NCBI GenBank assembly: GCA_030141605.1
Contig: JAQGDQ010001955.1
Location: 1-19,349 of the forward strand
Direction: 5' to 3'
DNA length: 19,349 bases
Origin: Tubiluchus corallicola
Taxonomy: Eukaryota; Animalia; Priapulida
Both the position numbers and the translations under genes were made by a program. The notes beneath the pieces were generated by a model that was not told where the DNA came from, searched no databases, and was given only the letters and a program-made list of their open reading frames with translations. Of the stretch, positions 154 to 19,349 are shown in pieces; positions within the stretch are counted from its first letter, which is position 1; each line of letters opens with the position of its first letter.

Positions 154-534
154 GTAAGTTTCTTGCATGACTTGGATATTTATTGTAATTAAAAAGCTTG
201 TAGTGACAATTTCCACGGCAGTAACACTTCATCTAAAAAGAAAAAGAAAAATGTCATAAGCAGTAACATGGTATAACGGGCTAATGATTAACTGAATTTT
301 GTGTAGGTTAATAGATTAAATGATAATTATCACGTCTAACGTAGTACTTAAACAATATCTTGTTCAATTTTTTAAACTTACCAAATTTCGCTGATTGTCG
401 TTCAGTCCCAAGTCGTAAAATACGAGAGTGAAGTTACCAGGACCAAGCTCCACGTTCAAATTCAATATCAGTCCTTCTCCTTCTGTGTAATGGGTGTGAT
501 CAAATGCAGTGACGAACACTGGTTCTGTCCTTTC
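1..534. repeat. Long inverted repeat: 1-161 vs 374-534, 212-bp spacer
   Basis: Direct comparison gives 159/161 identity, including the splice donor. The left arm probably continues beyond the window. Confidence 0.9.
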
Positions 535-795
535 ATTGACTTTAGAAGCATTGAAGGGGTTCAGATGATACTCATGAACATTCTCACAGCAGTAGCTTCC
601 CCCAGAATGTAATTTTACATTTGCGATAGTTTCTACAGATGTCTTCAAGTCTCTGTGAACAATCTGATGGTGCATCGCAGACGGTACTATTGGCCTCCAT
701 CGTCCTGGTCCTAGGAAAGTCAGTATCATCACCATACAGAGTATAAGTAAATAGGAGAGTTTCCTTTTAACTCCAAAGACGTTTGAGAGTGACAT
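382..795 (-). CDS. First coding exon of a DUF1647-like type II membrane (putative glycosyltransferase-fold) protein
   Basis: ATG at 795, a basic stretch plus hydrophobic anchor (KRKLSYLLILCMVMILTFL), then PVFVTAFDxxHY...FYDLGL, a motif pair I associate with DUF1647 (PF07801). Acceptor TTCTTGTTTCAG precedes 818 and a phase-0 GTAAGT donor starts at 381, so the ORF-track tail 364-381 is intronic. Confidence 0.65.
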
Positions 796-1489
796 AATGG
801 TACTAGACGGTGCGGATGCTGAAACAAGAACTGAAGAAATGTATAATGCGAAAAATGCTCTTTTACCAAGTTTTGTGTTATTTTGTATCTCTTTGAGTTT
901 TAATAAAAGCGTATAGAGTTCTTATTAATAAGCTTATTAGTGTCTGATGCATGTGTTTTCGCCTGCCTGCGTTTGTTGTTTGCAGGTTGTCTGCTTTGTT
1001 TGAAGCAAGCGCTTGCCTGGATATCACAGGGGATGTCCATTTCACAAAGTTAAACTTTTGCTAAATTTTATCATCAATGACCAATGGTAGAAGTGCTATT
1101 CGGAACGTACAAGGAGGGCATTTTCTAAATAAGTGTCGTTAGCCACACGTGTGAGATTATTTTGGATTTAAGTTCTATTTGCAGTAAACCTATTGCTTTT
1201 TTATCACAATAAAACTGATCTCTAATGCGTTATTGGAATTTGTACATGAGCTTTCTTCTGTGTATAATTAACACAAATTATTGTCTCTAAAATTAACAAT
1301 AAGCTAACAATTTATCATTTACTTCCCAGTAAACATTGAAATTATGAGCCTGTTCTGGCATTATTACGCCACATTCTGGCATTGCTGGCATAAAAGCACA
1401 CGCTCATTGGGTCAGTGATGGCATGCCGCTTCCTAACCATTAAATAAATAACATTGCTGGTCCAGTACTGACATGTTGCTTCAGCGATC

Positions 1490-4237: not shown

Positions 4238-4851
4238 AACACCGTTTCTGTAATTACGTAATTCTATAATGATGTAATTCTATGCACACGAAATAATTCG
4301 TGGCCACAAATTCGATTTCTCACGCACGGATCATAATACATTGTCACGAATTAATAACTTTTCTCATCTTGAACCTTCGAGGGTTCCAGAGTTTGATGCA
4401 TACCATCTCACACAAAATTTGCAGTTATACGCAACTTTTGCATAAAGCAAAGATTCTATTGGTCTTATCTGTTTTTATAGTCAACAATTATTTTTGAGCT
4501 TTTTATAGCCAACAATATACACGAGAACGAATTTAAGCACGTTTAATTAAAATATGTAAGTCATAAGGCTGGTAAAACAGCTTATAAGGGTATGTATCGA
4601 ACCCGAAGCCAAGCAAAAGTTGTGTCAGACAAATTGTTGCAGAGAGAGTCAATTATGCGGAGTTATTTGAGTCAATTACCGATAGGTTTTATGTATATTT
4701 GAATATAAGCAGCTCGTTCCAGGCGTTTATGTGTGTGAATTATGCGATTAAGTCTGTTAACGGTGAGTGTATTATGCGGCGCCTAATGTAGTATGGCAGA
4801 AGCTTATAATAGTAATTTTGTGTTTACGTTGTATATGTGATGCAATAGATT

Positions 4852-5879
4852 TTCGTACTCTCATTGACATCAAAACTACTTCGTACTCTCATTGACTTGA
4901 AATCTACTTCGTACTCTCATTGACATCAAAACTACTTCGTACTCTCATTGACATGAAATCTACTTCGTACTCTCATTGACATCAAATATACTTTGTACTC
5001 TCATTGACATCAAATCCACTTCGTACTCACATTGACATCAAATCTAGTTCGTACTCTCATTGACATCAAATCTACTTTGTATTCTCATTGACATCAAATC
5101 TACTTTGTATTCTCATTGACATCAAATCTACTTTGTATTCTCATTGACATCAAATCTAGTTCGTACTCTCATTGACATCAAAACTACTTCATACTCTCAT
5201 TGACATCAAATCTACTTCGTTCTCTCATTGACATCAAATCTACTTCATACTCTCATTGACATCAAATCTACTTTGTATTCTCATTGACATCAAATCTACT
5301 TTGTATTCTCATTGACATCAAATCTACTTCGTTCTCTCATTGACATCAGAACTACTTCCTACTCTCATTGACATCAAAACTACTTCATACTCTCGTTGAC
5401 ATCAAATCTAGTTCGTACTCTTATTGACATCAAATCTACTTCGTTCTCTCATTGACATCAAATCTACTTCGTACTGTCATTGACATCAAAACTACTTCGT
5501 ATTCTCATTTACACCAAAACTACTTCGTATTCTCATTGACATCAAATCTACTTCGAACTCTCGTTGACATTAAATATACTTCGTACTCTCATTGACATCA
5601 AAACTACTTCGTAGTCTCATTGACATCAAAACTAGTTCGTACTCTCATTGACATAAAATCTACTTCTTACTCTCATTGACATAAAATCTACTTCGTTCTC
5701 TCATTGACATCAAAACTAGTTCGTAATCTCATTGACATCAAAACTAGTTCGTACTCTCATTGACATCAAAACTACTTTGTACTCTCATTGACATCAAAAC
5801 TAGTTCGTAATCTCATTGACATCAAAACTAGTTCGTAATCTCATTGACATCAAAACTAGTTCGTACTCTCATTGACATC
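4852..5879. repeat. 28-bp minisatellite, ~36.7 copies, consensus TTCGTACTCTCATTGACATCAAA(A/T)CTAC
   Basis: Units are head-to-tail with no spacers. Unit starts fall at 4852+28n (checked at 5132 and 5860), so there is no net indel. Confidence 0.95.
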
Positions 5880-6133
5880 TGTTGGGAGCTAGTAGTTTTT
5901 ATGGTGGGGGTGCAACTCTTTACCTCTCAACTCATCCACAAATCTGACTATCCTGTCGCGTCATCTTTTATTCACAATAAAAGGGGTTTGTGGGTGGTTG
6001 TTGTCCTACAATTTTCCAGAGGGCAACAAGGCATATGAACCAAAACGACACAGGTTTTCCATGTTGACCATGACATACATAGATTCCAAACATTCCGACA
6101 ATAAAATCTTATATGAAACGGAGGAAAAGATTA

Positions 6134-6275
6134 TGAATTTGAATTTGAATTTATTTATTCCACAGCAACTCAAATATACATATAAATTGATATAACATTG
6201 AAAAAAAATAAATAAACTATGCGAGTTACTGTGAGGAGGAGGAAGGAGCATTTTGCTTTCGAGTCCTCCTCCAAG
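6134..6275 (-). mobile_element. Short 3' end of an L2/Crack-like LINE (or related SINE)
   Basis: The - strand ends AATAAATAAATTCAAATTCAAATTCA (poly(A) signal plus short tandem tail). It is preceded by a stem-loop, read on + as GGAGGAGGAAGGAGC-ATTTT-GCTTTCGAGTCCTCCTCC, resembling L2-group 3' UTR hairpins. Confidence 0.4.
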
Positions 6276-7961
6276 GTTATGTTTACTATTTTTATTCACT
6301 TTTTGCTCTGTTTAGATAAATCAGGACAGGTTATATTATCAATGACAGTTTCGCGTAAAGGCAGTTAATAATAATAATAACAATGACAAAGTGAAAAGGA
6401 AACAAATTGTCTACTTGTCAGTTAACCCTTCCACTGAGAGGACAAGGACATAGGATAGGAGTCCGCGGACATAGCTCACTCCAGTCGGTCACAGCAACAC
6501 ATCAACGACTTCAAGTCTATGGCCATGACTATCAAAGGTGATGACGCCTGCAGCAAATTAAACATGAACTAAGGAATGCCTCACAAGTCTCTGTGGTTGA
6601 CTCAGGATACGTCCACAATCCACTACGCCAACTTGCCTTGATATAGCATATAGTGACTTGATTGGACATTTGGCAATGAATAATCAACAGCCAGTTAGAT
6701 TTTGTCGGATTCTTATGCCTTCGCTTTCAGCTGTATGATCTCGAATGAAAGCTTTCAATTTTATTAAGACATTTATTTAAGAGACATTCTTTTATTGAAA
6801 TTTATTGGAATTTATTTATTTATTACTAGTTGCTTTTCTTATGTCGACTATTTCTTGTATAAATGCATGTACTGCATATTCTCTATCACACAGATTTGTA
6901 CTATGCACTATACTCTACCCAGAAATCTGTTTGTTTGAAGTAAACAGTTTATATTAATATCTTTGGAAATATGGTAGTCATGCTGGCAGACACAGCCAAG
7001 AACGAGAAAAACTGTGCAATTAGGTGAATTTTAAAGAAAGTTTCACCATTGATATTTGCTGTTTCAAAGTACTCCCAGGCAGCAAATTGCATCTGATCAA
7101 GCACCATTAATGTAGTTTCTCTGTTCACCAAATGACTTGTAAATGCTACTTATTCTTAGTAAACCATTCCCATCATATTGAAAAATATTTCTGGGAATAG
7201 GAAGTCTGAAGATTGTACAATTTGCCATTGTTATCAAACCAGAACTCCTAGACTAAAAAAGAAACTACATTTTGTTAGGGATAATAAATGCACAGAAAAA
7301 TTATGATAACCCTGAAACACAAATAAACTTTGTTTCAACCACTATGGGCTCAGTTCACATAGCTACATTTTTCATTGCCATACGCCCTTGATGGCCAATC
7401 CTGAACATTTGAACAACCGTTCATTTTTTCAAGTTATTCGTCAACTGATATTTGTGTAATATAAAAACTGTTACTATTATGCTGATTAAAACGTAATAAA
7501 CAGTTTCATTTGAATGCACCTAATACATTTGTTGGATGAGTTGACTTAAGATGCTGTGCCTCTAGCAAGCTAATATATTCTGCCTTATAATCTCTCATTC
7601 ATGACTTACCTTAATGCCATCACAACAATACATTAATCATCACTACAACTATTTAAGAGCCGTCTCATCTGCAGGGACTAACTGTTTGGGATTTAACTGT
7701 TTGACGCTGTTTTTATTTGTTATCATAAATTTCTATTCTTTATTTGTTCTTTTTTAAGGTTTGCTAATGTTATTTACATTGCATTCTATTCGCACTACAG
7801 TACAGAATTCCCTCATGATATAGATATTTTAAACATTACTCCGGGTATTAGTATAAAAGGTCTGAATAAGCTGAAATTCAGTCCTTTTATGTATAATTAG
7901 AAACTTTTAACAGTAGTGTGTAATGTTACATTACTGGCCGTTTTAGGGACCCCTGCCCTGT

Positions 7962-8332: not shown

Positions 8333-8835
8333 TGTATTGTTTAGGAAACAATTTGATAATATATTTTTTGTTATACAGTTGTGTCATAATGAATGTTTTT
8401 TTTAGACTTGGAATTAACAGAAACTTGTAGTATCTTGGGGAGGTGTTGCCATCTTTTGGCTGTAAAATTAATTTACCTGTCTCTTAAACTGTTTACTGTA
8501 CAATCTATTTACATACCATTTACTGGGTTTCAACTAAAGTCAATGAGCTGTAACAGGAGTCCTGGCTATTGTATGTTGGTCAGTAGTAGTTCAGGTCTCA
8601 TAGTCTGCTGGTGAATAGTGTAATTGGTGAATTTCATAATGTAGTTTGTCAATGTATGTTGCTTTAAATTATATTTTTGTGGTTTTTCCTGATTTGCTAA
8701 ACTGAGAAGTTCAATGCTTTAATTTTTGTTATAGAGTGTTAAACTTAGGTGAATTATTAAGTGTAAACTTCCCTAAACGTTGCTTCATTACTTTTATTTG
8801 GTTACAACATGCAGGCAGACAAACTGGACAAAACA
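8333..8835 (+). repeat. 5' LTR of BEL element 1
   Basis: 8333-8652 matches 14789-15108 (5 transitions in 320 bp), and 8792-8837 matches 15208-15253 exactly. The termini form an imperfect 8-bp inverted repeat. Confidence 0.9.
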
Positions 8836-8870
8836 TTTCAACATAAATTCAGCACTTTCAATAGGAATTA

Positions 8871-11800
8871 ATGATGTCAGCTTCGGAGAAAAAGACGAGG
8901 AGAACTGTTGCAAAGTCAGCTTTGACAAGGGTACTGAGAAGGCTTCAAAATTTAATTGAAGAGGAAGACAGTGTGCAAGAAATTAATCGGCTGGTGGATG
9001 CTGTGGAGGCTGCACTCAATCATTTGGAAGCATGCCACATTGAATTCTTTAATGCATGCAAACAAGAACAGCAGAATGTGGATGAAGACAAGGCTTCTCA
9101 ATACATGGAGCAAGAATATTCAAGAGCAGACAACGTTTTTGCATCAGTTAAGGACTACAAGCGGAGAATCAGGCGAGTTGAAGAACTCAAGAAAGAGAAG
9201 GATGATGAAGCTAAAGCAACGAAGGAAGAGGAAAAAATCATCAGGTGGCACAAAATAGATTTTGATACACTGATTCATTTATTGCATGGACATATTGAAA
9301 ATCAGGAAAAGAGGCTTGAGAGCGGAGATACAGCAATTCAGGTTCTGGAGAGTTGTCGGTTAGAAATTCAGACATTGTTGGAAAAAGTGAGGTTATCATT
9401 CACCAAATATGCTTCCTTGCTTGCTGACTATCAGGAAGAGGATAGAAGATTCAATGACGTAGAGACAATTGTTAAAGAGATAAATGACAAAGCAATGAAC
9501 TATATTGGTTCTCAATCATTGCAAAACAATCATGCATCTGGCATGTCAAACAACACTGGAAATGAGCAAGCATCTGGTAGAGCAAAATTGGAAGCAATAC
9601 CAATTCCCGGTTTTCGTGGTGGCTACAGTGAATGGCCGACGTTCATCACAAATTGGAGGAGGATTGTCGAAAAACATTATTCCAGTGAATTTTGAGCTGC
9701 CATCTTGAATGAGAAACTAAGTGGAGAGGCGGCGGATCTAGTAGCTGCCTGTAATGACAACTACGCTGAAATGATTAAACGCCTTGAAAGAAAATATGGA
9801 GATAGAAAGAAAGACACTGAAAGCATCATGGCAGAAATCAGAGATGTCAAGCCTTTATCTTCTGGCAACCATGTTGGTTTCATAAAGTTTGTCGACAGGA
9901 TAGAAAAAGCCAGTACAAAACTAAAGTCACTAGGTATGTTGCAGGAAATTAGCAATGTGGGGGCACTAGCTGAAATTGAACGCAGGTTACCGGAAGATAT
10001 TCGTAATGAATGGGCAAGGCACATCATCAGCAAGAGTGATGAGGAGAGACTGGAACCTTTCAAGCTTCTTTTACCATTTTTGTTAATGGAAAAGGAGCGC
10101 GTAGAGTATTTAACTGCAGGTGTACGAAAGCAGTTTGGCAGTGTCAGTAGCCATTATCAGGACATTCAACCCGAAGCCTTTGGGACTGGTGGCGGTGCTA
10201 AGTTAAAAAGCTGTTTCAAATGTGGCAAACAAGGACATTTTGCTCGTGAATGTAAAGCAAACGGGAGGATGGGTGACAAAAGACCTTACTTCAAGTGCAG
10301 CACATGCGAAGTAAATGACCATTTAAACAGGGATTGTGAGAAGTTCAAAAATATGACTGTTAATCAAAGACGAGATGTAATAAAGAGGCATGGTGCTTGT
10401 TATATCTGCTTTGGAAATCATGTGGCAGTAGTATGCAAGGGCACAGCAAAGTGCAAGAAGTGTCAGAATGGAGGTCACCATACAATGCTCTGCTCCAAAG
10501 AGATGCAATCTGGGCCTGGTAGTGTTTCAAAATCAAATGTTGAAGTGGTTGATTCAACAACTATTTCAAATTGTGTGGATGCTAAGAAGGTTACATCAGC
10601 TACAGTGACGGATAGTGCTGGTACTGATTCAACAACATTACTTCATATAATGGAGATTCAAGGACCAAGACGGGGCAGTAAAATCAATGCTTTCTTTGAT
10701 TCAGGAAGTTCTGGAATGTTTATAACACATGACTGTGCAAAGCAGAATAAGTTCCCTGGAAAAAGTGAGATAATTGATGTTAAAACTTTGCAGGGACATG
10801 TCGAAACTTTGGAAACTCAGGTGTATAACGTCACGATAGTGGATAAAGATAATCAACGTCATACCTTTTTGGCATACGGCCTGGATTCAATAACTGGAAG
10901 CATTTCTCCAGTTGACATGACAGTGGTGAAGCGTATTTTTCCAGGGATTTCAGTTGGGGACCTTAAGCGTCCGAGTGGCACAGTGGAGCTTTTACTTGGC
11001 AATTTTAAAGCTGGATGGCAACCTCAACCAATCAGATCAGATGGCGCTCATCTTTTCATTATGGAAAATATGTTTGGTAGGTGTTTGGGTGGATCTCATC
11101 CAGAGCTATTTGACACTACCAGAAAGGCAAATGGATGCTGGAAAGAAGCTATTTTTCATGCAAAGGTCTCTAATTTCAGTACTGAAGTTTTAAGTCATCC
11201 ACAGCTCAATCCACAGGAGTGCCTAGTGATAAAGCAGTCGGGTGATTCTATGTCATCATTTTCAGTTGGTACAGAAGATAACTGTGACACCTTCTTTGCA
11301 GCTGAAGCACTCGGAACTCAGATTGTGCCGAAATGTGGGGCATGTCGGTGTGGTAAGTGCCCTATACCCGGGCATACCTACAGTTTCCGGGAAGAAAGTG
11401 AGCTACGCTTGATCCGTGAAGGACTCAGCTACGATCTAGATCGCCAAGTCTGGATTTCAAAGTATCCTTGGATAGTGGACAGATCACAGTTGCCTGATAA
11501 CTATCAACAAGCTCTGTCAGCTTTACAGTCGTGTGAGACAAGTTTGGCAATAAATACAGAATGGGGTGCTGTGTATTCAGGTCAGATACAAGACATGGTC
11601 GATCGAGGTGCTGCACGCAAACTTAGTCAAGCCGAGATTGATAACTGGAAAGGGCCAGTTTTCTATTTATGCCACTTGGCTGCGCTTAACCCTAAGAGCC
11701 AGTCAACACCCGTGCGAATTGTTTTCAACAGCAGTAGAAAAGCCAAGGGTAACATTTCACTTAATTCATGTTTGGCTAAAGGACCAGACAATTACCTTAA

Positions 11801-14756
11801 TAATTTGCTTGGCGTGTTTTGCAGGTTTCGAGAGCACTCTTTTGCTATTCAAGGGGACATTCGGAAGATGTACAACTCAGTTGAAATGGATGTCAATGAT
11901 CAGCACTGTCACAGATTTCTTTGGCGGGATTGTGATGAAAATAGGGCACCAGATGTATACATCATTACTGTTGTAAATATTGGCGACCGTCCGGCGGGAG
12001 CGATTGCCACTGAAGCATTGTATATGACTGCTGAAATGTTCCAAAGCTCACATCCTCAGGCAGCAAAGGTCATAAAAGAGTCAACATATGTTGATGATAT
12101 TCTAGAGTCTTGTGAAGGAAGAGAAAGGGGCCTCGGACTAGCAAAGGAGGTGGAAGATATTTTGAAAAGAGGGAATTTTAAAGTGAAGTGTTGGCGTTTT
12201 TCTCGTGAAGCAACTACAGAAGAAAATTCTCCGGTTAAAGTGATTGCAAATTCAGAAGAGGAAGGTCGAGTGTTGGGAGTTGTGTGGGACTCAGTGGTGG
12301 ACAAATTCAAATTTCATGCAAAGATCAATTTCTCAAGACGGAGGAGGAAAGTACGAACAGGTACAGACATATGTCGCGAGGAGTTAGCCAGAGAAATGCC
12401 ACCAATTTTGACAAGACGGATGGTCATGAGCCAAGTCATGTCACTGTTTGACCCATGTGGCTTTCTTACTCCAGTCACCATGAAGAGTAAGATACTGCTA
12501 AGGGAAACTTGGGTTAAGAAACTTGGCTGGGATGATGCATTGCCATTGGATCTGCGGGAGAAGTTTTTTGAATTTTTTCAAGAACTCTATGATGTTCAGA
12601 GTTTATCATTCCCAAGATGCTTGCAGCCAAGAGAAACTGTTGGTGATCCGATGCTGATCATACTTTCAGATGCTAGTGAGACAGGATTTGGTGCTGTCGC
12701 CTATGCTCATTGGGAATTAACTGATGGAGGTAGTAAGAGTCAGCTTATAATGGCAAAGGGTAAAATTGCTCCGCTGAAGCACATCACGATTCCAAGACTT
12801 GAACTAAATGGTGCGCTAGTGGGCAAACGAATAAGGAAATTCATTGAAAGTGAAATGCGGTACAATTTCACAGAGGTTTTGCATCTCATTGACTCGAAAA
12901 CAGTTTTGGGGATGCTACAAAAAACAAGCAGTAGATTCGATCGCTATGTGGGAGTGCGTGTTGGAGAAATACAATCTGCATCTAAACTTTCAGAAGACGG
13001 GAAACTTGATGAGTGGATGTGGATCGATGGATCTCATAATATTGCAGACTGGGTGACACGTGGAAAGAAGCCATCAGATTTAGCAAGTGATGAATGGGTA
13101 AATGGACCACATTTTCTGAGTTTACCAAGGAGTGAATGGCCTGTATCACCTGCTTCAGTCAGTGAGGATGAACTATCAGATATCGCAGCAGTTGGACTAG
13201 TTTCTGTCAAGGAGAACGAGTCAGTATTTGATGTATCTCGGTTTAGCAAAGTTAATAGGCTACTTCGTTCAGTCGCAAGAGTGTTGCAAATAGTGAAACC
13301 GTGTGGTGATGGGAAACGCCATTTTTCCAGTGGTTCAGTAATGGTAACAGCTGAGATGTTGGAGGCAGCCAGGAGACGTGTCATCAAAGAAGCTCAGGAC
13401 ACAGTTGAGGAAGAGTTAGAGAAATCGGCACCAGATAAAGATGGTAAACCCACTGGTAGATTTACAAGGTTAGCACCAACGAAGAACAGTGACGGATTTT
13501 GGGTGGTTGGCAGTAGAATGCAGTGTTATGTCATTTTCACGTGGGACAACCAGCTACCTATTATTTTGCCATATGGACATCCATTGACACGACTTTTCAT
13601 GGACGAAGCTCATTCTCAAGGGCATCTTGGGGTGGCTGCAACTCTGGAAAAGTTTCGCAGGAAGTACTGGGTTCCTCGTGGAACGCAATTGGCCAAAAGT
13701 GTCAAGCACAGATGTACTACTTGTAGACGTGTTGATGTCAGAGCAGCGAAACAGCTAATGGGCCCTCTTCCAGAAGAAAAGCTTAAGCCAGCTCCACCTT
13801 GGACAAATACAGGAGTTGATTTGTTTGGCCCATTTAGGGTAAGAGGAGAGGTCAATAAGAGATCAGCTGGGAAAGCATATGGAGTTCTGTTCGTGTGTTT
13901 AATAACAAAGGCTGTCCACATAGAACTTGCGAACAGTTACTCCACTGGCAGCTTTCTTTCATGTCTCCGTCGGTTTGGTGCAATCAGAGGCTGGCCAACA
14001 AAGATGTTCAGTGATGGTGGGTCGCAGCTGAGAGCAGCAGGCAAAGAATTGTTGGAAATGCATCTTCAGCTAGCAGGAAAAGATGTGTCCACATTCAGTG
14101 CTTCAAATGGATTTGCTTGGGAGTTTAGCCCTGCACATGCTCCATGGTGGCAGGGGACAACAGAGAAGTTGATTCATACGGCAAAAAGGGCGATTTCACT
14201 GGCAGTAGGATGTGCACTCATGAGCTATTCCGAGTTACAAACTGTCCTTTACGAGGTGATGCAGCTAATAAACCAGCGACCTCTTCATGTACATATTTCA
14301 GAGGAGAAGCATTTCAAGGCTTTGACACCGAATGATATGTTGCTTGGTCGCAGCTCTGTGAACATACCTCCAGGTCCGTGGAACTACAAGGCATCGTACA
14401 GAGATCGCTTTAGAGTAATTCAGGCAATTGTCGACACGTTTTGGCGCAGGTGGAGCAGAGACTGTGCACCAGCCATGGTAGTTCGTCAGAAGTGGCATCA
14501 TAGAGAGCGGAACATTCAAGTAGGAGATGTTGTGTTTGTTGCTGACACCAATACTCTGCGAGGAGAGTATCGCTTGGCAATGGTGGATGAGGTGTTTCCT
14601 GGATCAGATGGAAATGTTCGTCATTGCATCGTCAAATACAAAAACATCAAACCAGATGAGGATGCTAGGAACTATGGTGGTGCGACATATACAAGGGTAA
14701 GACGGCCAGTTCAGCGGTTGGTTGTTCTTGTTCCTGCAGATGGTTGGGAGATTTAA
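8871..14756 (+). CDS. gag-pol: BEL/Pao Gag-Pol polyprotein, one frame interrupted by an in-frame TGA at 9693-9695
   Basis: ORFs 8871-9695 and 9705-14756 are in the same frame (SEF*AAILNEKL). Motifs: DUF1759 (IPGFRGGYSEWPTF); Zn knuckles at 10212-10493; protease FDSGS (10698); RT GDIRKMY and YVDD (12087-12098); RNase H SDAS, IPRLEL and NIADWVTRG; integrase HxxGH..CxxC, GVDLFGP, SDGG and PWWQGTTE; C-terminal FWRRW..RPVQRL. Confidence 0.93.
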
Positions 14757-14783
14757 AGGAGCACCGCGTTTTTTTTTCATCTT

Positions 14784-14788
14784 GGGGG
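14784..14788 (+). promoter_or_regulatory. Short polypurine tract (GGGGG) of element 1
   Basis: Lies immediately 5' of the TG that starts the 3' LTR at 14789, preceded by a T-run, as is typical for BEL elements. Confidence 0.7.
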
Positions 14789-15251
14789 TGTATTGTTTAG
14801 GAAACAATTTGATAATATATTTTTTGTTATACAGTTGTGTCATAATGAATGCTTTTTTTAGACTTGGAATTAACAGAAACTTGTAGTATCTTGGGGAGGT
14901 GCTGCCATCCTTTGGCTGTAAAATTAATTTACCTGTCTCTTAAACTGTTTACTGTACAATCTATTTACATACCATTTACTGGGTTTCAACTAAAGTTAAT
15001 GAGCTGTAACAGGAGTCCTGGCTATTGTATGTTGGTCAGTAGTAGTTCAGGTCTCATAGTCTGCTGGTGAATAGTGTAATTGGTGAGTTTCATAATGTAG
15101 TTTGTCAAGACTGCAATTTATGTTGAAACCTACCCCCCTCTACACCAGCTTCACTGCTTCATTTTTTTTACAATAAAGGAATCAACCTGTATCAAAGTGT
15201 TCATCATTTTTATTTGGTTACAACATGCAGGCAGACAAACTGGACAAAACA
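14789..15251 (+). repeat. 3' LTR of BEL element 1
   Basis: Matches the 5' LTR except for 15109-15207. Contains AATAAA at 15172-15177 and ends ACAAAACA. Confidence 0.9.
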
Positions 15252-15799
15252 TTCATAGCTATAGTGTATCGGTTGTGCAATTCTGGGTTCCTCTGCAGCC
15301 GTTTACGTAGACTTTCCAATCTAGATGAAGCCATTTGTAGCGTATCTGGTAAAACATCGTTCTCAGATTTAAATGGGATGTCCAACTGGTAATGCCCATG
15401 TGTTTTTGTGACTGAAGCCTCCCATATATCGAGAGCACGCATATCGTCTCTAGAGAATTGTCTGTCAGACTCGCTAGTTTCAATTTTCCAGAATTGTTCT
15501 ATTTGCTGCTGCAAGGAATTGGTTTCTCCATATGACAATGCATTGGCTTGGGTTAAATTACTACAAATGCGCCCTAAATTAGGAACGCCGCCTCCTATGG
15601 GTCCATTAAGGGTCCAGCCTAGCTTTGTCTTCACAGCATATGGCGTTAGTCTAGGACCTGTTCGTACCTCAAGAGGAATCAGCGCATCAGGAACATCCTG
15701 GCCGATCAAAAGTCCCAGTTCAGTTAGGTCTTCTGTATCTGTGAACGATAGGGGAAGTCCTTGCAAATGCGGCCATTGTTCTACATCCTTGCTAAAGGC
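15252..15799 (-). pseudogene. In-frame continuation of element 2 pol (end of protease and pre-RT linker) after a TAG, truncated
   Basis: The same frame continues past the TAG at 15800-15802 as AFSKDVEQWPHLQGLP... to ...NPELHNRYTIAMN, then runs into the reversed LTR of element 1. Confidence 0.85.
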
Positions 15800-18790
15800 C
15801 TAGCAGTCCTTTTCCAGTAACAATGCAGGCCTAACGAAGACATGAGGCAAAGCTATTTTATTGCCAGTGTTTACCCCAGTAACAGACATCTTCGTGATTA
15901 AAGTGTTTATCTTGGAATATTTCTCTTCTATAGTGGTTAAAGAGAGCGTTCGTTTTTGTCCAGTAGCCCCAAGTTTGTCGAACAATGCCTTTGTACAAAA
16001 AGTGTTAGTCGAGCCAGGGTCAAGTAGGGCTAAAGTACGCACGGGCATCTTCCCATCAACTTCAACCAAAACTGAGACAACAGGGAGAGCCGCTTTGCCG
16101 CCTTCCTTAATACTAGCACAACTGCTAGAAGCTTCTGGTTTACAATGTGTTGGCGCTTTTTCCTTCTTGCTTCCATCATTGTTTTTAGAAGGTGACATTT
16201 TCTCCAAGGCAGCATGCAGTAAATTTGAATGCTTACGTCTGCATCCTTCTACGTCGCATCCTGCTTTGAAGCATCGAGCAGCCCTGTGCTTTCCTTTAAT
16301 CAAACAATTGAAGCAAAGACCTTCTCTTCTGGCGGTTTTCAATCTATCAGTATCATTCATTGACTTAAATTTATTGCATAGCCTGAGTGAACGGTGTTCC
16401 GTAGAGTTACATAGAAAACAAGGCATCTCTAGGCGTTGAGAAGCCATTTTGCCACCACTTCCGGTTGTATTTCCGGGTTGTCGTTCACTGTTGCATTTCG
16501 TAATTGATGCAGTTTCCTGCGCTGAGCTGGCGAAATTCCTGGCTTTGGTGTCGCGTCTACCTTTTGGGCTCCTAGTAGACAGGCTAACGTTAATGTCGCC
16601 AAAGACCGGATGATTAATTTTGTCAGCTGCGTCCTTAATGAATTCGACTACATCAAATATCGTCGGATTCCTGTGCTCATATTTCAGAAGCCTGGCTACA
16701 ACATCCTTCCACCTATCCTGGAACTTGAATGGGAGTTTTTTAATTATTTGTAGCAAACTGCATTGAGTACTAATTTCGCAAACGTTGTTCATTATTTTCA
16801 AAGTTTCCACACAAGCCACAATCAAATCAGAAAATTCCTGTAACTTTCCCGGCTCATTTATCTTTATGGGCTCAAATTCAGCAATTCTGGAAAGCCAGGC
16901 CTGTGTGACAACAAATGGCGAGCCGAATCTTTCGGTTAAAAGCTGTTTAGCATGCCCATATGCAAAACGGGGGTCCATATAATTACAACTGTCAACAACT
17001 CTTTTAGCTTTACCAATGCAGAGTTGGGCTAACCTAGTGTACCTCGCTGCATCATCTTGGGTATAGTTCTCCACGCTGGCTTCGAAACGCTTGATAAAGC
17101 TCCAGAACTTCATTACGTCACCATCAAACGTTTCAAGCTGCACGTGTGGAAGCTGCATAGCATTGTACATATTTAAGTGTTGTCTTTGGCCTTCTAACAT
17201 GAGGTCCATAAAAACGTTCATGTCATTCTGACTAGCCCTACCGGAGAAATTCCTAGAATTATTTTGTATCCCGTTACCACAAGAAGCCTGAGGCGATGTA
17301 GCCGGAAGCGGAAGTTGCGTATTCCCTGGGACGAAGTCACGTGCAGAAATATTTAAAGTTTGTTCTACCTGGGGTGATTTAAATGCGGCATGGAAGAACG
17401 GCGTAGTTTGTTTAACGCTAGGTTCTAAACCTTCACTGGAAGAATTTTCGAAGAAGGGCTGTACATCAGATAAATAGATATTCCACCATCTACGAAGAAA
17501 ACCTGATTCATAGTCATCCGAAAAATTGACGTTTACATATTCAGTATAATCCCAGGGCTTCTTTCGGCCTAAAAAGTGCGCAACTTTAATCTTGCTACTG
17601 AACTGCTTCATTGCAGGAAGGTAACCGTAACGACCTTGGACGGCAGCATTATACACAAAAGGTAGGCGCTTGTCAAACTGTGAACTCCAGTTCGGAAAGG
17701 CTAAATTTAATAAACCCTGATCACCGCCATCGAATGAACAGGCCTCAGTTTGTGATAGTGACAACAATCTACTGTAAGTTTCCAAATTAGGCTGAAATAC
17801 AAACATTCCAGAATTAAAACAATCAGGCCACCCCACATCTGGGGCAGCCGCAAGCTCATCATAATTGAATAACTCATCAATATTATCTAATACTAAAGTA
17901 TCAGCATCTAAGTAAACGCACTTTGTAAACTGAGTCATAGCCCAGCAGTGCAATTTCGAGAATGTTACATTTAGCTCTGGCCTACCTAGCAAATGCAAGT
18001 TATCAAAATCACTACTCTTTAATAAATCAATCATTTGTACATAATCAAAAACATTACTAAGCTCTGCCATAACTCTGCTAGAAACAGTATGGGTGACCAA
18101 AATTGCTAGATGTCGAGTTGTACCAGTTCGACGCAAACTGTGTGCCAAGACAAGAGCTCCCTTAGCATAACTGTCGTTCATTGCCATGGTGAGATAGGCC
18201 TCCATAGACGTATGATGAACTGCAGGCTTGGTGTCTGATGACTGGGCTTTGGTGACGTCACGCACTCCTTGAAGCCAATCGGTAACCTTGTCCTTGGTTG
18301 ACATGGGTTTCCTAGCTAAAGTCTCGTCCTTGATTTCAGGCGAGGTGATGGTTGTACGCGACTTCTGACTGGTTGCACTGCTATGTGAAGTAACTTCACT
18401 CTCAAGTCTTAACTGTTTTAACTTCATTGCTTTTAATTTCAGCTCCTGTTCCTGAATCTTAATCTCATGCAACTTTACTTCCCTGGCACTTTTCTTCGAC
18501 CGTCTCGTAGATTTCAAATGACTAGCACCTGAAGATGCTTTGGAAGGGCTGCGCTCGCCAACTTGATGCTGCGCTGTCGCTGTAGCTGCGTCAGCATACG
18601 ACGACGTACCAGACGCTTCACATGACGTTACATTATATGAATGATCTGGTTTCTGCTGACTTGCTAAGAGTCTGTGAATTAGCTCTTCTTTACTACCAGA
18701 AACTGACAGTTGTTTGGCCCGCAGCATTTCTCGCAGCTGATCACGGGTAGTATTTTTTAATTTCTCCCTTGTTGTTTGGTCCGACATCAT
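15800..18790 (-). CDS. gag: BEL Gag-protease ORF: SAP domain, glycogenin GT8 domain, PAM2-like motif, DUF1759, Zn knuckles, aspartic protease
   Basis: A 996-aa uninterrupted ORF. SAP-like aa 11-45; glycogenin aa 196-445; LNISARDFVP aa 479-488; capsid-like region from ~17152; knuckles CFLC..H..C, CFNC..H..C and CDVEGC..H..LLH; protease DPG. Confidence 0.92.
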   Translation of the reverse strand: MMSDQTTREKLKNTTRDQLREMLRAKQLSVSGSKEELIHRLLASQQKPDHSYNVTSCEASGTSSYADAATATAQHQVGERSPSKASSGASHLKSTRRSKKSAREVKLHEIKIQEQELKLKAMKLKQLRLESEVTSHSSATSQKSRTTITSPEIKDETLARKPMSTKDKVTDWLQGVRDVTKAQSSDTKPAVHHTSMEAYLTMAMNDSYAKGALVLAHSLRRTGTTRHLAILVTHTVSSRVMAELSNVFDYVQMIDLLKSSDFDNLHLLGRPELNVTFSKLHCWAMTQFTKCVYLDADTLVLDNIDELFNYDELAAAPDVGWPDCFNSGMFVFQPNLETYSRLLSLSQTEACSFDGGDQGLLNLAFPNWSSQFDKRLPFVYNAAVQGRYGYLPAMKQFSSKIKVAHFLGRKKPWDYTEYVNVNFSDDYESGFLRRWWNIYLSDVQPFFENSSSEGLEPSVKQTTPFFHAAFKSPQVEQTLNISARDFVPGNTQLPLPATSPQASCGNGIQNNSRNFSGRASQNDMNVFMDLMLEGQRQHLNMYNAMQLPHVQLETFDGDVMKFWSFIKRFEASVENYTQDDAARYTRLAQLCIGKAKRVVDSCNYMDPRFAYGHAKQLLTERFGSPFVVTQAWLSRIAEFEPIKINEPGKLQEFSDLIVACVETLKIMNNVCEISTQCSLLQIIKKLPFKFQDRWKDVVARLLKYEHRNPTIFDVVEFIKDAADKINHPVFGDINVSLSTRSPKGRRDTKARNFASSAQETASITKCNSERQPGNTTGSGGKMASQRLEMPCFLCNSTEHRSLRLCNKFKSMNDTDRLKTARREGLCFNCLIKGKHRAARCFKAGCDVEGCRRKHSNLLHAALEKMSPSKNNDGSKKEKAPTHCKPEASSSCASIKEGGKAALPVVSVLVEVDGKMPVRTLALLDPGSTNTFCTKALFDKLGATGQKRTLSLTTIEEKYSKINTLITKMSVTGVNTGNKIALPHVFVRPALLLEKDC
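17456..18205 (-). CDS. GYG: Glycogenin (GT8) catalytic domain embedded in frame within Gag
   Basis: Colinear with glycogenin-1 as recalled: NDSYAKGALVL, RPELNVTFSKLHCW, CVYLDADTLVLDNIDELF, AAPDVGWPDCFNSG, SFDGGDQGLLN, LPFVYN, YGYLPA, VAHFLGRKKPW, WWNIY. Confidence 0.95.
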
Positions 18791-18908
18791 TTAGGTGTGT
18801 TCAACTTTAAACATGACCAAATAACTTCTCCTGTCTACAAAAGTCAATCTATGTACGCGAAACAGTAGCTAAACCGGAAGTAGGTCACAATCTGGGTCAT
18901 ATGTTGAC

Positions 18909-19349
18909 TGTATAAAAATGTCCACTCTGGATTGTCGAATGCCGATATAAAATTGCTTGGGCTTTACGGAGACAAACAAACAAAGTCATCATTCGCTCAG
19001 TGTAACTGTTTATTGTTTGTACTATTTTCATGGCACATGCCCCGTAGTCATATTTGCTTCATCCCAAAATATTACATTTTATCTGAAATAATATATAAAT
19101 TTCTTTAATAAACTGATTCATTTTTACCAAAACATCGAATATGATTAAATTAATGAGAAGCTTACAACAAAATAAAATAAATGACTAAATAAAATTTACG
19201 TACATCGTTGGCATTAATCATGAGTTCACACAGCTACGTCACCACATGTACACCTTGAAACCTAAATGACCGGAAACTCTGTAGGAAGCGACTATTGAGG
19301 CCAGGTGTCGCCACTTGTAACTTATAGCTATACTAAATTTGACAAACAA
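18909..19349 (-). repeat. Putative 5' LTR of element 2
   Basis: Upstream of the Gag ATG. It has AATAAA (19009-19014, - strand), an AT-rich intron-like GT..TTTCAG segment and a candidate CA end (TTTTATACA at 18909). There is no second copy in the window to confirm the boundaries. Confidence 0.35.

Follow-up and report, generated by a model that had tools for sequence, protein, structure and literature searches.

The window, a 19,349-nucleotide stretch of Tubiluchus corallicola DNA, carries at positions 15800–18790 of the minus strand a 996-aa open reading frame (P0001) that ends at a stop codon at 15800–15802. We confirmed that this frame encodes a BEL/Pao-type Gag-protease with an in-frame, intronless glycogenin catalytic domain, and its translation bears out the claim of an earlier sequence-only reading that no internal stop interrupts the 996 codons. 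The same reading expected a domain search to recognise four domains: in Pfam, Glyco_transf_8 and DUF1759 were indeed matched, whereas SAP scored below its cut-off and the aspartic protease was identified by motif only, with no Pfam match within the ORF.

Most of the frame consists of recognisable Gag sequence. The N-terminal SAP-like motif (residues 15–42; 18665–18748, minus strand) scored 20 bits in Pfam, under the 23.9 cut-off; SAP is matched above the cut-off at residues 8–42 in relatives P0235 and P0381, which indicates that the motif is native to some Gags of this lineage. Upstream of the glycogenin insert, a coiled-coil-like stretch is followed by the Gag-like motif VTDWL (18272–18286, minus strand), which has a counterpart, VNDWL, at the same place in one of 18 relatives (P0237). 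Downstream of the insert, the Gag motif LNISARDFVP (residues 479–488; 17327–17356, minus strand) resembles an LNP.A..W/F.P motif found shortly upstream of the capsid in several relatives (P0187 matches the strict pattern; P0134, P0138, P0175, P0244, P0372 and P0380 show looser forms when inspected by eye). There follow a DUF1759 capsid-type domain (residues 555–696; 16703–17128, minus strand; Pfam E 5.1e-6, above cut-off), over which 18 BEL Gag relatives are 35–44% identical to P0001; three zinc-knuckle-like nucleocapsid motifs (residues 791–859, starting at 791, 826 and 845; 16214–16420, minus strand), also present in P0244, P0380 and P0381; and the aspartic protease active-site motif LDPGS (residues 923–927; 16010–16024, minus strand), which matches full-length BEL Gag-Pol relatives.

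The glycogenin (GT8, GT-A type) catalytic domain occupies residues 196–445 (17456–18205, minus strand), the extent originally assigned to it, with Met196 at 18205. Pfam Glyco_transf_8 covers residues 200–416 (E 4.5e-18), and a phmmer search of the PDB aligned residues 197–447 with positions 4–261 of the human glycogenin-1 catalytic domain (E 5.9e-85, versus 3.7e-31 for the next-best GT8 enzyme). An AlphaFold2 model of the domain has a mean pLDDT of 84.9 and a pTM of 0.87. The insert begins at the Met where host glycogenins begin and runs to the last helix. We compared the domain with 22 positions that we take to be the key residues, numbered via muntjac GYG1 (P0360), and 20 were kept. Of the two departures, that at residue 204 is private to the window copy: independently assembled contigs of four public runs (X1–X3, one sample; X4, a second study) all agree there with 37 of 37 hosts. 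The catalytic DXD motif is kept as D295-A296-D297, together with His405, Lys411 and the other metal- and UDP-glucose-binding residues N326, D354, D357, Q358 and R270. According to PMC9188544, glycogenin works as a dimer and human Tyr195 is the self-glucosylation acceptor; this Tyr is kept as Tyr388 (codon 17627–17629), and the dimer contacts Y197/D160/W128 described in PMC12267440 are preserved as Y390/D354/W321. Judged by these residues, the domain looks catalytically intact, and the enzyme is probably active.

Using a host-tail profile (E ≤ 10), we found no C-terminal synthase-binding motif in P0001 or in any of the six frames of the window; the profile finds the tail in 8 of 9 control glycogenins, in 341 of the 387 glycogenins fetched and at 76 of 80 loci. 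This tail of about 34 residues recruits glycogen synthase, as PMC9188544 describes. Because it is absent, we class the insert as a glycogenin catalytic domain rather than a complete glycogenin, and a short oligoglucose primer is a likelier product than a granule. The earlier suggestion that particles associate with glycogen granules is weakened for the same reason.

Upstream of the ORF lie a leader (18791–18939, minus strand) and, judging from depth and contig ends, a 5′ LTR of at least 410 bp (18940–19349, minus strand) that runs to the window end. Internal contigs of all four runs end at 18972, summed depth climbs several-fold past about 18885, and the LTR terminates with CA at 18940 (minus strand). 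Belpaoviridae are characterised by paired LTRs of 0.2–1.2 kb and an 18-nt primer-binding site matching tRNA-Arg or tRNA-Gly. A second LTR of the glycogenin element is absent from the window, and the primer-binding-site position lacks the usual TGG start, as it does in a neighbouring BEL element; no tRNA genes were found in the window. At the stop codon, contigs of all four runs differ from the window, and the stop is apparently private to this copy. Read through with an X at the stop, pol continues for 182 codons of protease-RT linker (15253–15799, minus strand), and this one frame aligns unbroken from the capsid to just before the RT of relatives; seven BEL Gag-Pol relatives align at 35–39% identity, to residue 1175–1179. 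The nearest relatives have the order protease-RT-RNase H-integrase, of which the window copy retains only the protease motif: RT, RNase H, integrase and the 3′ LTR are missing beyond a cut at 15251/15252.

The truncation is made by the 3′ LTR of a second BEL element on the plus strand (8333–15251; 5′ LTR 8333–8835, 3′ LTR 14789–15251), which is only distantly related to the glycogenin element (20% identity over Gag-protease). This second element lacks a target-site duplication, and an internal block differs between its two LTRs, so that at least one point in the region is rearranged or mis-joined; no listed contig bridges 15251/15252. Beyond 15250 the majority contig carries on in sequence that differs from the window (X2 record 9; X1 and X2 also show loose ends), so the family as a whole does not share the nested truncation.

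Both edges of the GT8 domain are bridged by contigs with at least 31 letters on each side. The 3′ junction near 17450 is spanned by X1 record 5 (16935–17539, depth 1326) and X3 record 22 (17402–17755), and the 5′ junction near 18205 by X2 record 14 (18036–18348) and X3 record 23 (17817–18519). An X4 contig contains position 17440, 53 letters from the contig end, and X4 record 31 (17994–18237) extends 32 letters beyond Met196. X1–X3 may themselves be the source of the assembly, all five listed X1 flank contigs having 0 differences from it. Depth of the major contigs is even across Gag, GT8 and protease in X1–X3. The median ratio of element to unique-flank contig depth is 15 in X1, the deepest run (range 10–20), and 10 in X2 (6–16), the GT8 domain itself standing at about 11–16 times the unique flanks in X1, and we estimate that the family comprises 10–20 near-identical copies. 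No contig skipping GT8 was found among those listed, none of the three listed joints omits it, and the contigs seen include no full-length copy that retains RT and integrase. In X4, one GT8 variant at high depth lacks 2 letters, and both BEL elements occur as uneven, high-depth deleted variants. X5 and X6, which bear the same species label, contain next to no sequence words of the element. No RNA run was listed as containing it, a result that speaks neither for nor against expression.

The fusion is real and family-wide, a conclusion we hold with high confidence. An assembly chimera had been named as one way in which the fusion might be spurious, and the bridged junctions speak against it; a one-off insertion had been named as another, and no GT8-less sibling appears among the listed contigs, with the domain present at full family depth. 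The in-frame fusion is genuine and present in most copies of a multi-copy family. The proposal that every Gag copy would carry the enzyme holds for the sister copies but not demonstrably for the window locus, given its stop and truncation.

We searched for comparable fusions elsewhere. No retroelement Pfam domain occurred in the 120 proteins listed among 717 matches of 548–1743 aa, or in any of 11 longer proteins. Among the best 150 of 13,260 representatives at 50%, the best stretch was GT8 or Gag and none scored like a fusion, and none of 418 fetched proteins matched both the glycogenin and the Gag parts. A metagenome scan with the N-terminal 535 aa of the fusion and a search of viral contigs returned nothing; in a metagenome scan with the GT8 alignment, 80 loci were kept out of 326, and none of them contained Gag or pol. 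The ESM Atlas gave no usable match, which shows neither absence nor novelty. A literature search by title and abstract, with Repbase, Dfam, subscription journals and supplements outside its scope, found no glycogenin-bearing retrotransposon among the papers listed, in agreement with the initial statement that no described LTR retrotransposon is known to have this cargo.

Identity of the GT8 domain to 40 named animal glycogenins is only 48–57%, whereas those proteins average 56–68% among themselves, and the domain forms the longest tip branch among animal sequences in a maximum-likelihood tree. Trees of 74 and 51 sequences, a set without a named cnidarian or sponge, leave it unplaced (SH-aLRT 17 for a clade of all other animal sequences). 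A likeness to P0304/P0349 (56%) was hinted at. GC3 of the domain (0.37) resembles that of the rest of the element (0.38–0.45) and gives no capture date.

To judge constraint, we classified the differences between copies. Synonymous changes make up 16 of the 31 differences listed within the frame, where 28% would be expected (omega about 0.37, P = 0.005). These counts are drawn from 40 differences listed among 241, and constraint reaches into pol past the stop. For the GT8 domain alone, four of seven listed differences are synonymous, which is not significant (P = 0.10). The open frame is itself uninformative on GT8 function, because Gag-Pol needs an open frame regardless. Among columns invariant in hosts, the domain retains 73 of 83; its 10 substitutions there are conservative, with a mean BLOSUM score of +0.9, versus −0.79 for random missense (P = 0.0006). 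At 88%, compared with 95–100% in the hosts tested (mean 98.9%), retention is lower than in any of those hosts, which points to relaxed constraint. The contrast between rate classes is modest (ratios 0.89, 0.82, 0.71 and 0.91), and at about 11% loss in invariant columns, some 18 ligand residues would all be kept by chance roughly once in eight. The conservative divergence may also predate a recent capture, having accrued in the host gene. On balance, we lean slightly towards selection having kept the GT8 domain for its activity.

The reading we favour, to which we give a probability of about 0.5, is that of a young multi-copy BEL/Pao-type family with a likely active glycogenin domain in Gag, acquired by template-switch capture and placing short glucose chains on the particle. 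A spliced host glycogenin mRNA would have been captured in frame into the N-terminal part of Gag; we infer template switching because the host introns and tail are absent and the route is documented for Pao/BEL elements, BATUMI and BEL18_AG being among the template-switch LTR retrocopies described in PMC5131818. Sequences N-terminal of the capsid domain are predicted to face outward, and the hundreds of GT8 domains on a particle could dimerise and glucosylate Tyr388 using UDP-glucose. With the tail missing, growth of the chain would end with a primer of about 8–12 glucoses. The most plausible benefit would be a coat of host-like sugar, shielding the particle or guiding it within the cytoplasm. 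Only tentatively do we extend this to a capsid self-glycosylation device kept by selection, in which each Gag would be both glucosyltransferase and acceptor and the particle would gain a host-like alpha-1,4-glucose coat independently of host glycosylation machinery.

A serious, if rather unlikely, alternative is that the domain is a tolerated passenger, captured fairly recently from a divergent host glycogenin and hitch-hiking in a variable arm of Gag, its activity incidental, with the frame kept open and the insert folded only because misfolding would spoil Gag. The pre-capsid region of full relatives varies from about 170 to 465 aa and so tolerates inserts, the eroded invariant columns and the non-significant GT8-only omega fit this explanation, and the glycogenin-Gag fusion was found in one species group only. 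Yet the insert coincides almost exactly with the catalytic domain, from start Met to last helix, and despite the extra 750 bp its depth remains that of the whole family; the changes within it are conservative, and its low identity to animal glycogenins and long tip branch also weigh against a recent passenger. Retrocopies offer a parallel that cuts both ways. As described in PMC5131818, retrocopies made through LTR elements are common and are often in frame simply because they are young, and they share with the glycogenin element an intronless host coding sequence between element sequences and a likely route of capture. Those retrocopies, however, are young and non-autonomous and replace parts of the ORFs, whereas here a complete domain has been added, the capsid, nucleocapsid and protease are intact downstream, and the family has amplified under constraint.

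It is less probable still that the domain serves as a binding module rather than an enzyme, either as a dimeriser aiding Gag assembly or by pairing with host glycogenin, which would tether particles to glycogen-rich cytoplasm or dampen host priming through a tail-less partner. The dimeric state of glycogenin (PMC9188544), the retained dimer contacts and the missing tail, which suits a partner unable to recruit synthase, are consistent with such a role. A pure scaffold, however, would have no need of the metal- and sugar-binding residues and acceptor Tyr that are kept, and the capsid of relatives assembles unaided, none of 19 relatives matching the GT8 part. We consider it very improbable that the copies represent a host-domesticated or segmentally duplicated chimeric gene, multiplied by locus duplication and serving the host: the lack of a complete element and the deleted variants in X4 would fit, but an LTR lies upstream of the ORF, the nested truncation is not shared past 15250, and constraint continues in pol beyond the stop. 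An assembly chimera, or a one-off retrocopy in a dead element, is largely refuted despite the rearranged or mis-joined point at the plus-strand element, since independently assembled contigs from two studies bridge both GT8 junctions at the depth of the whole family.

As an element, the glycogenin family resembles Belpaoviridae (PMC8742986) in its LTR, single gag-pol frame, DUF1759 capsid, three zinc knuckles and protease, and is 35–39% identical to the BEL Gag-Pol proteins P0244, P0380 and P0381 and to Lineus and Patiria proteins; it differs in the 250-aa glycogenin domain within Gag. BEL/Pao superfamilies include Sinbad, Suzu and Tas, as listed in PMC3118150, and the ICTV profile of Belpaoviridae names an env-like gene as the sole extra cargo (PMC8742986). 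The captured domain corresponds to the whole catalytic domain of animal GYG1, with equivalents of DXD, His212, Tyr195 and the dimer contacts, but it differs in its long branch, in being embedded in a polyprotein, and in lacking the synthase-binding tail, linker and introns. According to PMC9289625, LTR elements are considered to acquire cellular enzyme domains stably only on rare occasions. Bdelloid rotifer LTR elements with GDSL esterase and DEDDy exonuclease ORF3s (PMC5408684) and orchid Gypsy elements with an AlkB-like m6A demethylase shown to be active (PMC9289625) are likewise described as LTR lineages that retained such a domain; those enzymes, however, are encoded by additional ORFs of their own and act on RNA, DNA or lipids, whereas the glycogenin domain is a carbohydrate enzyme fused into a structural protein. 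A results section on the plant LTR-element screen (PMC9289625) names no glycosyltransferase domain. A virus-encoded glycogenin-like glucosyltransferase is described in PMC9614988: Mimivirus R707, a glycogenin paralogue proposed to build glucose polymers on virion proteins. R707 still has the Tyr but does not self-glucosylate, which counts against reading activity from that residue. It is encoded by a gene of its own in a giant DNA virus and has 26% identity to glycogenin, whereas the captured domain has about 53% and lies in a capsid precursor.

If the favoured reading is true, a central carbohydrate enzyme in a structural protein would connect glycogen metabolism with the particles of a retrotransposon. 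A non-enveloped cytoplasmic particle would then have a possible route to self-glycosylation, a strategy that we otherwise found described only for giant DNA viruses. Even as a passenger, the domain would represent a clean whole-domain capture that has spread to 10–20 copies.

The minus-strand Gag-protease frame starts at 18790 and stays open for 996 codons until a stop at 15800–15802; it has no internal stop, as the sequence-only reading had claimed. We searched its product (P0001, whose residue numbers we use) against Pfam, and two of the domains which that reading expected were recovered: Glyco_transf_8 (residues 200–416, E 4.5e-18) and DUF1759 (residues 555–696, E 5.1e-6). SAP gave only a sub-threshold match (residues 15–42), and the expected protease was seen as an LDPGS motif (923). 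Among solved structures, the middle of the frame matched human glycogenin-1 over the whole catalytic domain (E 5.9e-85), the next-best GT8 enzyme being far weaker (E 3.7e-31); the Pfam and structural matches thus bear out a complete glycogenin-type GT8 in frame within a BEL Gag. An AlphaFold2 model built from a 38-sequence alignment is a confident alpha/beta fold (pLDDT 84.9, pTM 0.87). The insert (GT8; 17456–18205) begins at Met196 (18205), the point at which host glycogenins start, extends to the final helix of the glycogenin catalytic domain and contains no introns. Among the top matches were P0005 and P0010, glycogenins fused to FHL-type LIM domains.

Glycogenin is described as self-glucosylating a tyrosine, yielding a primer of 8–12 glucoses, and as recruiting glycogen synthase through a C-terminal motif of ~34 residues (PMC9188544). 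A profile of this motif matched 341 of the 387 glycogenins retrieved and 76 of 80 loci from metagenomes, and found nothing in P0001 or any frame of the window; thus, judged by sequence, the captured piece would be the primer-making half only. We conclude that GT8 represents the catalytic domain of glycogenin and not the whole protein.

Downstream of GT8 lie a capsid-type domain, three zinc-knuckle-like motifs (791, 826, 845) and then the protease motif. With the stop read as X, the frame is 35–39% identical to seven BEL Gag-Pol relatives up to residue 1175–1179, just before reverse transcriptase (RT). Pao peptidase, RT, integrase and DUF5641 domains are present in three relatives of this kind, and two that are named come from Lineus and Patiria. 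GT8 occupies the variable N-terminal arm of Gag, between VTDWL (169) and LNISARDFVP (479), both similar to motifs in BEL relatives, and none of the relatives compared for these motifs carries the insert. An LTR runs from ~18940 to the window end (-). The element would work like a BEL element, and its Gag has the features of a BEL Gag, RT being absent from the window copy. The primer-binding-site position begins TT, not TGG, both here (18915–18939, -) and in a second BEL element (8836–8860, +).

LTR elements, Pao and BEL ones among them, have documented cases of capture by template switching from spliced, particle-packaged mRNA (PMC5131818), and because introns and tail are missing we infer that GT8 was acquired in this way. 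The Ty3 capsid is reported to comprise 540 copies, with the N-terminal capsid subdomain forming a protruding layer and the N-terminal arm directed outwards (PMC6525542). By analogy, GT8 domains would stand at high density on the outside of the immature particle, where they would dimerise and attach short alpha-1,4-glucose chains to Tyr388. Our preferred guess at the benefit is a host-like coat that would shield or steer the particle. A predicted function of GT8 is likely. Mimivirus R707 is a precedent but also a warning: this viral paralogue of glycogenin has been proposed to add glucose to virion proteins, and it keeps the tyrosine yet is reported not to self-glucosylate (PMC9614988).

GT8 might instead be a tolerated passenger, which we consider doubtful. 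Selection was assessed on the 40 differences shown of 241: the coding frame, leaving the stop aside, accounts for 31, and the other nine are seven and one LTR sites plus the stop. Synonymous differences make up 16 of the 31, against 28% expected (omega ~0.37, P = 0.005), and 4 of 7 in GT8 alone (P = 0.10). GT8 keeps 73 of 83 columns near-invariant in 37 host glycogenins, below every host (95–100%); its ten changes there are much milder substitutions than random missense would give (P = 0.0006). GT8 might also serve as a dimerising or host-glycogenin-binding module, a possibility to which we give little weight. Of 22 positions key to glycogenin, GT8 keeps 20, including D295/D297, H405, K411, Q358 and the acceptor Y388; of the two that changed, one did so in the window copy alone. 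Four of the 22, Y195, Y197, D160 and W128, are named in PMC9188544 and PMC12267440. GT8 is 48–57% identical to 40 named animal glycogenins, below the 56–68% that these average among themselves, and trees left the donor lineage unplaced. These patterns are consistent with GT8 having long resided in the element under selection that is purifying, though relaxed; they might also arise if it was captured recently from a host glycogenin gene that evolves fast and lies outside the sample.

Major element contigs of run X1 have depths of 961–1530, against 76–92 for contigs of unique flanking DNA (n = 5, zero differences from the window). The element/flank ratio, a rough guide to copy number that would halve if flank contigs are single haplotypes, has a median of 15 (10–20) in X1, excluding two of eight listed element contigs (low-depth variants ~7% diverged), and is 10 (6–16) in X2. 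Between the majority contigs and the window the divergence is ~1%, and therefore the glycogenin-bearing family is young; that its copies are a host-duplicated chimera is very improbable. Over 15447–15787, ~7% diverged X1 contigs (depth ~200–235) suggest a second, older subfamily of this element.

The window is matched by four public runs that represent no more than two samples and two studies; contigs assembled independently from these runs cover all 30 bins of the stretch. X1–X3 are one sample, perhaps the assembly's own source, and therefore only X4, from the second study, is independent. X1 record 5 (16935–17539, depth 1326) and X3 record 22 (17402–17755) span the downstream GT8 junction (~17450), and an X4 contig includes place 17440 at a distance of 53 letters from the contig end. 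X2 record 14 (18036–18348) and X3 record 23 (17817–18519) span the upstream junction (~18205), and X4 record 31 just reaches across, to 18237. With both junctions bridged in two studies, an assembly artefact is scarcely credible. None of the three joints listed among run contigs skips GT8. We conclude that the fusion is real and family-wide. X4 also includes a GT8-region contig (17568–17912) that carries 15 differences plus a deletion of 2 letters, at depth 127 versus 25–38 for most other parts, and an internally deleted form of the second element (12100–13298, depth ~157); both may be amplified non-autonomous derivatives.

The window copy is broken off at 15251/15252 by the 3' LTR of that second element, a near-complete Gag-protease-RT-RNase H-integrase unit (8333–15251, +) at ~4x flank depth in X1, with one in-frame stop (9693–9695) not shared by run contigs. 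No target-site duplication surrounds it, and its LTRs (503 and 463 bp), though almost the same at either end, differ in an internal block; this suggests that the rest of the first element was lost by recombination between two insertions or by a mis-join. In none of the four runs do contigs agree with the window at codon 15800–15802, and the majority contig continues beyond 15250 with other letters, so stop and cut both appear private to this copy.

Elsewhere in the window, an open frame at 364–921 (-), probably a host exon, has a stretch like a membrane anchor and a motif resembling that of glycosyltransferases (weak DUF2304 match only; Atlas leads <0.9). An inverted repeat of 161 bp (1–161/374–534, 99%) overlaps the end of this frame. 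An RT fragment at 2260–2763 (-; RVT_1 E 5.9e-12), inside a high-depth repeat region, is probably from a non-LTR element. A tandem array at 4852–5879 (28-bp unit, 36.7 copies, 90% matches) adjoins a very high-depth repeat near 4646, and 5881–6500 is a very high-depth interspersed repeat, SINE- or MITE-like (summed depth ~48,000 in X1).

We found no second glycogenin-Gag fusion among the matches listed from proteins, metagenome and viral contigs. The sequence-only reading knew of no LTR retrotransposon with this cargo, and we likewise found none described in the literature outside repeat databases, subscription journals and supplements; the fusion is apparently undescribed so far. Enzyme capture by LTR elements is already on record (PMC5408684, PMC9289625, PMC6338049); what is unusual here is the cargo, a glycogenin domain, and its place inside Gag.
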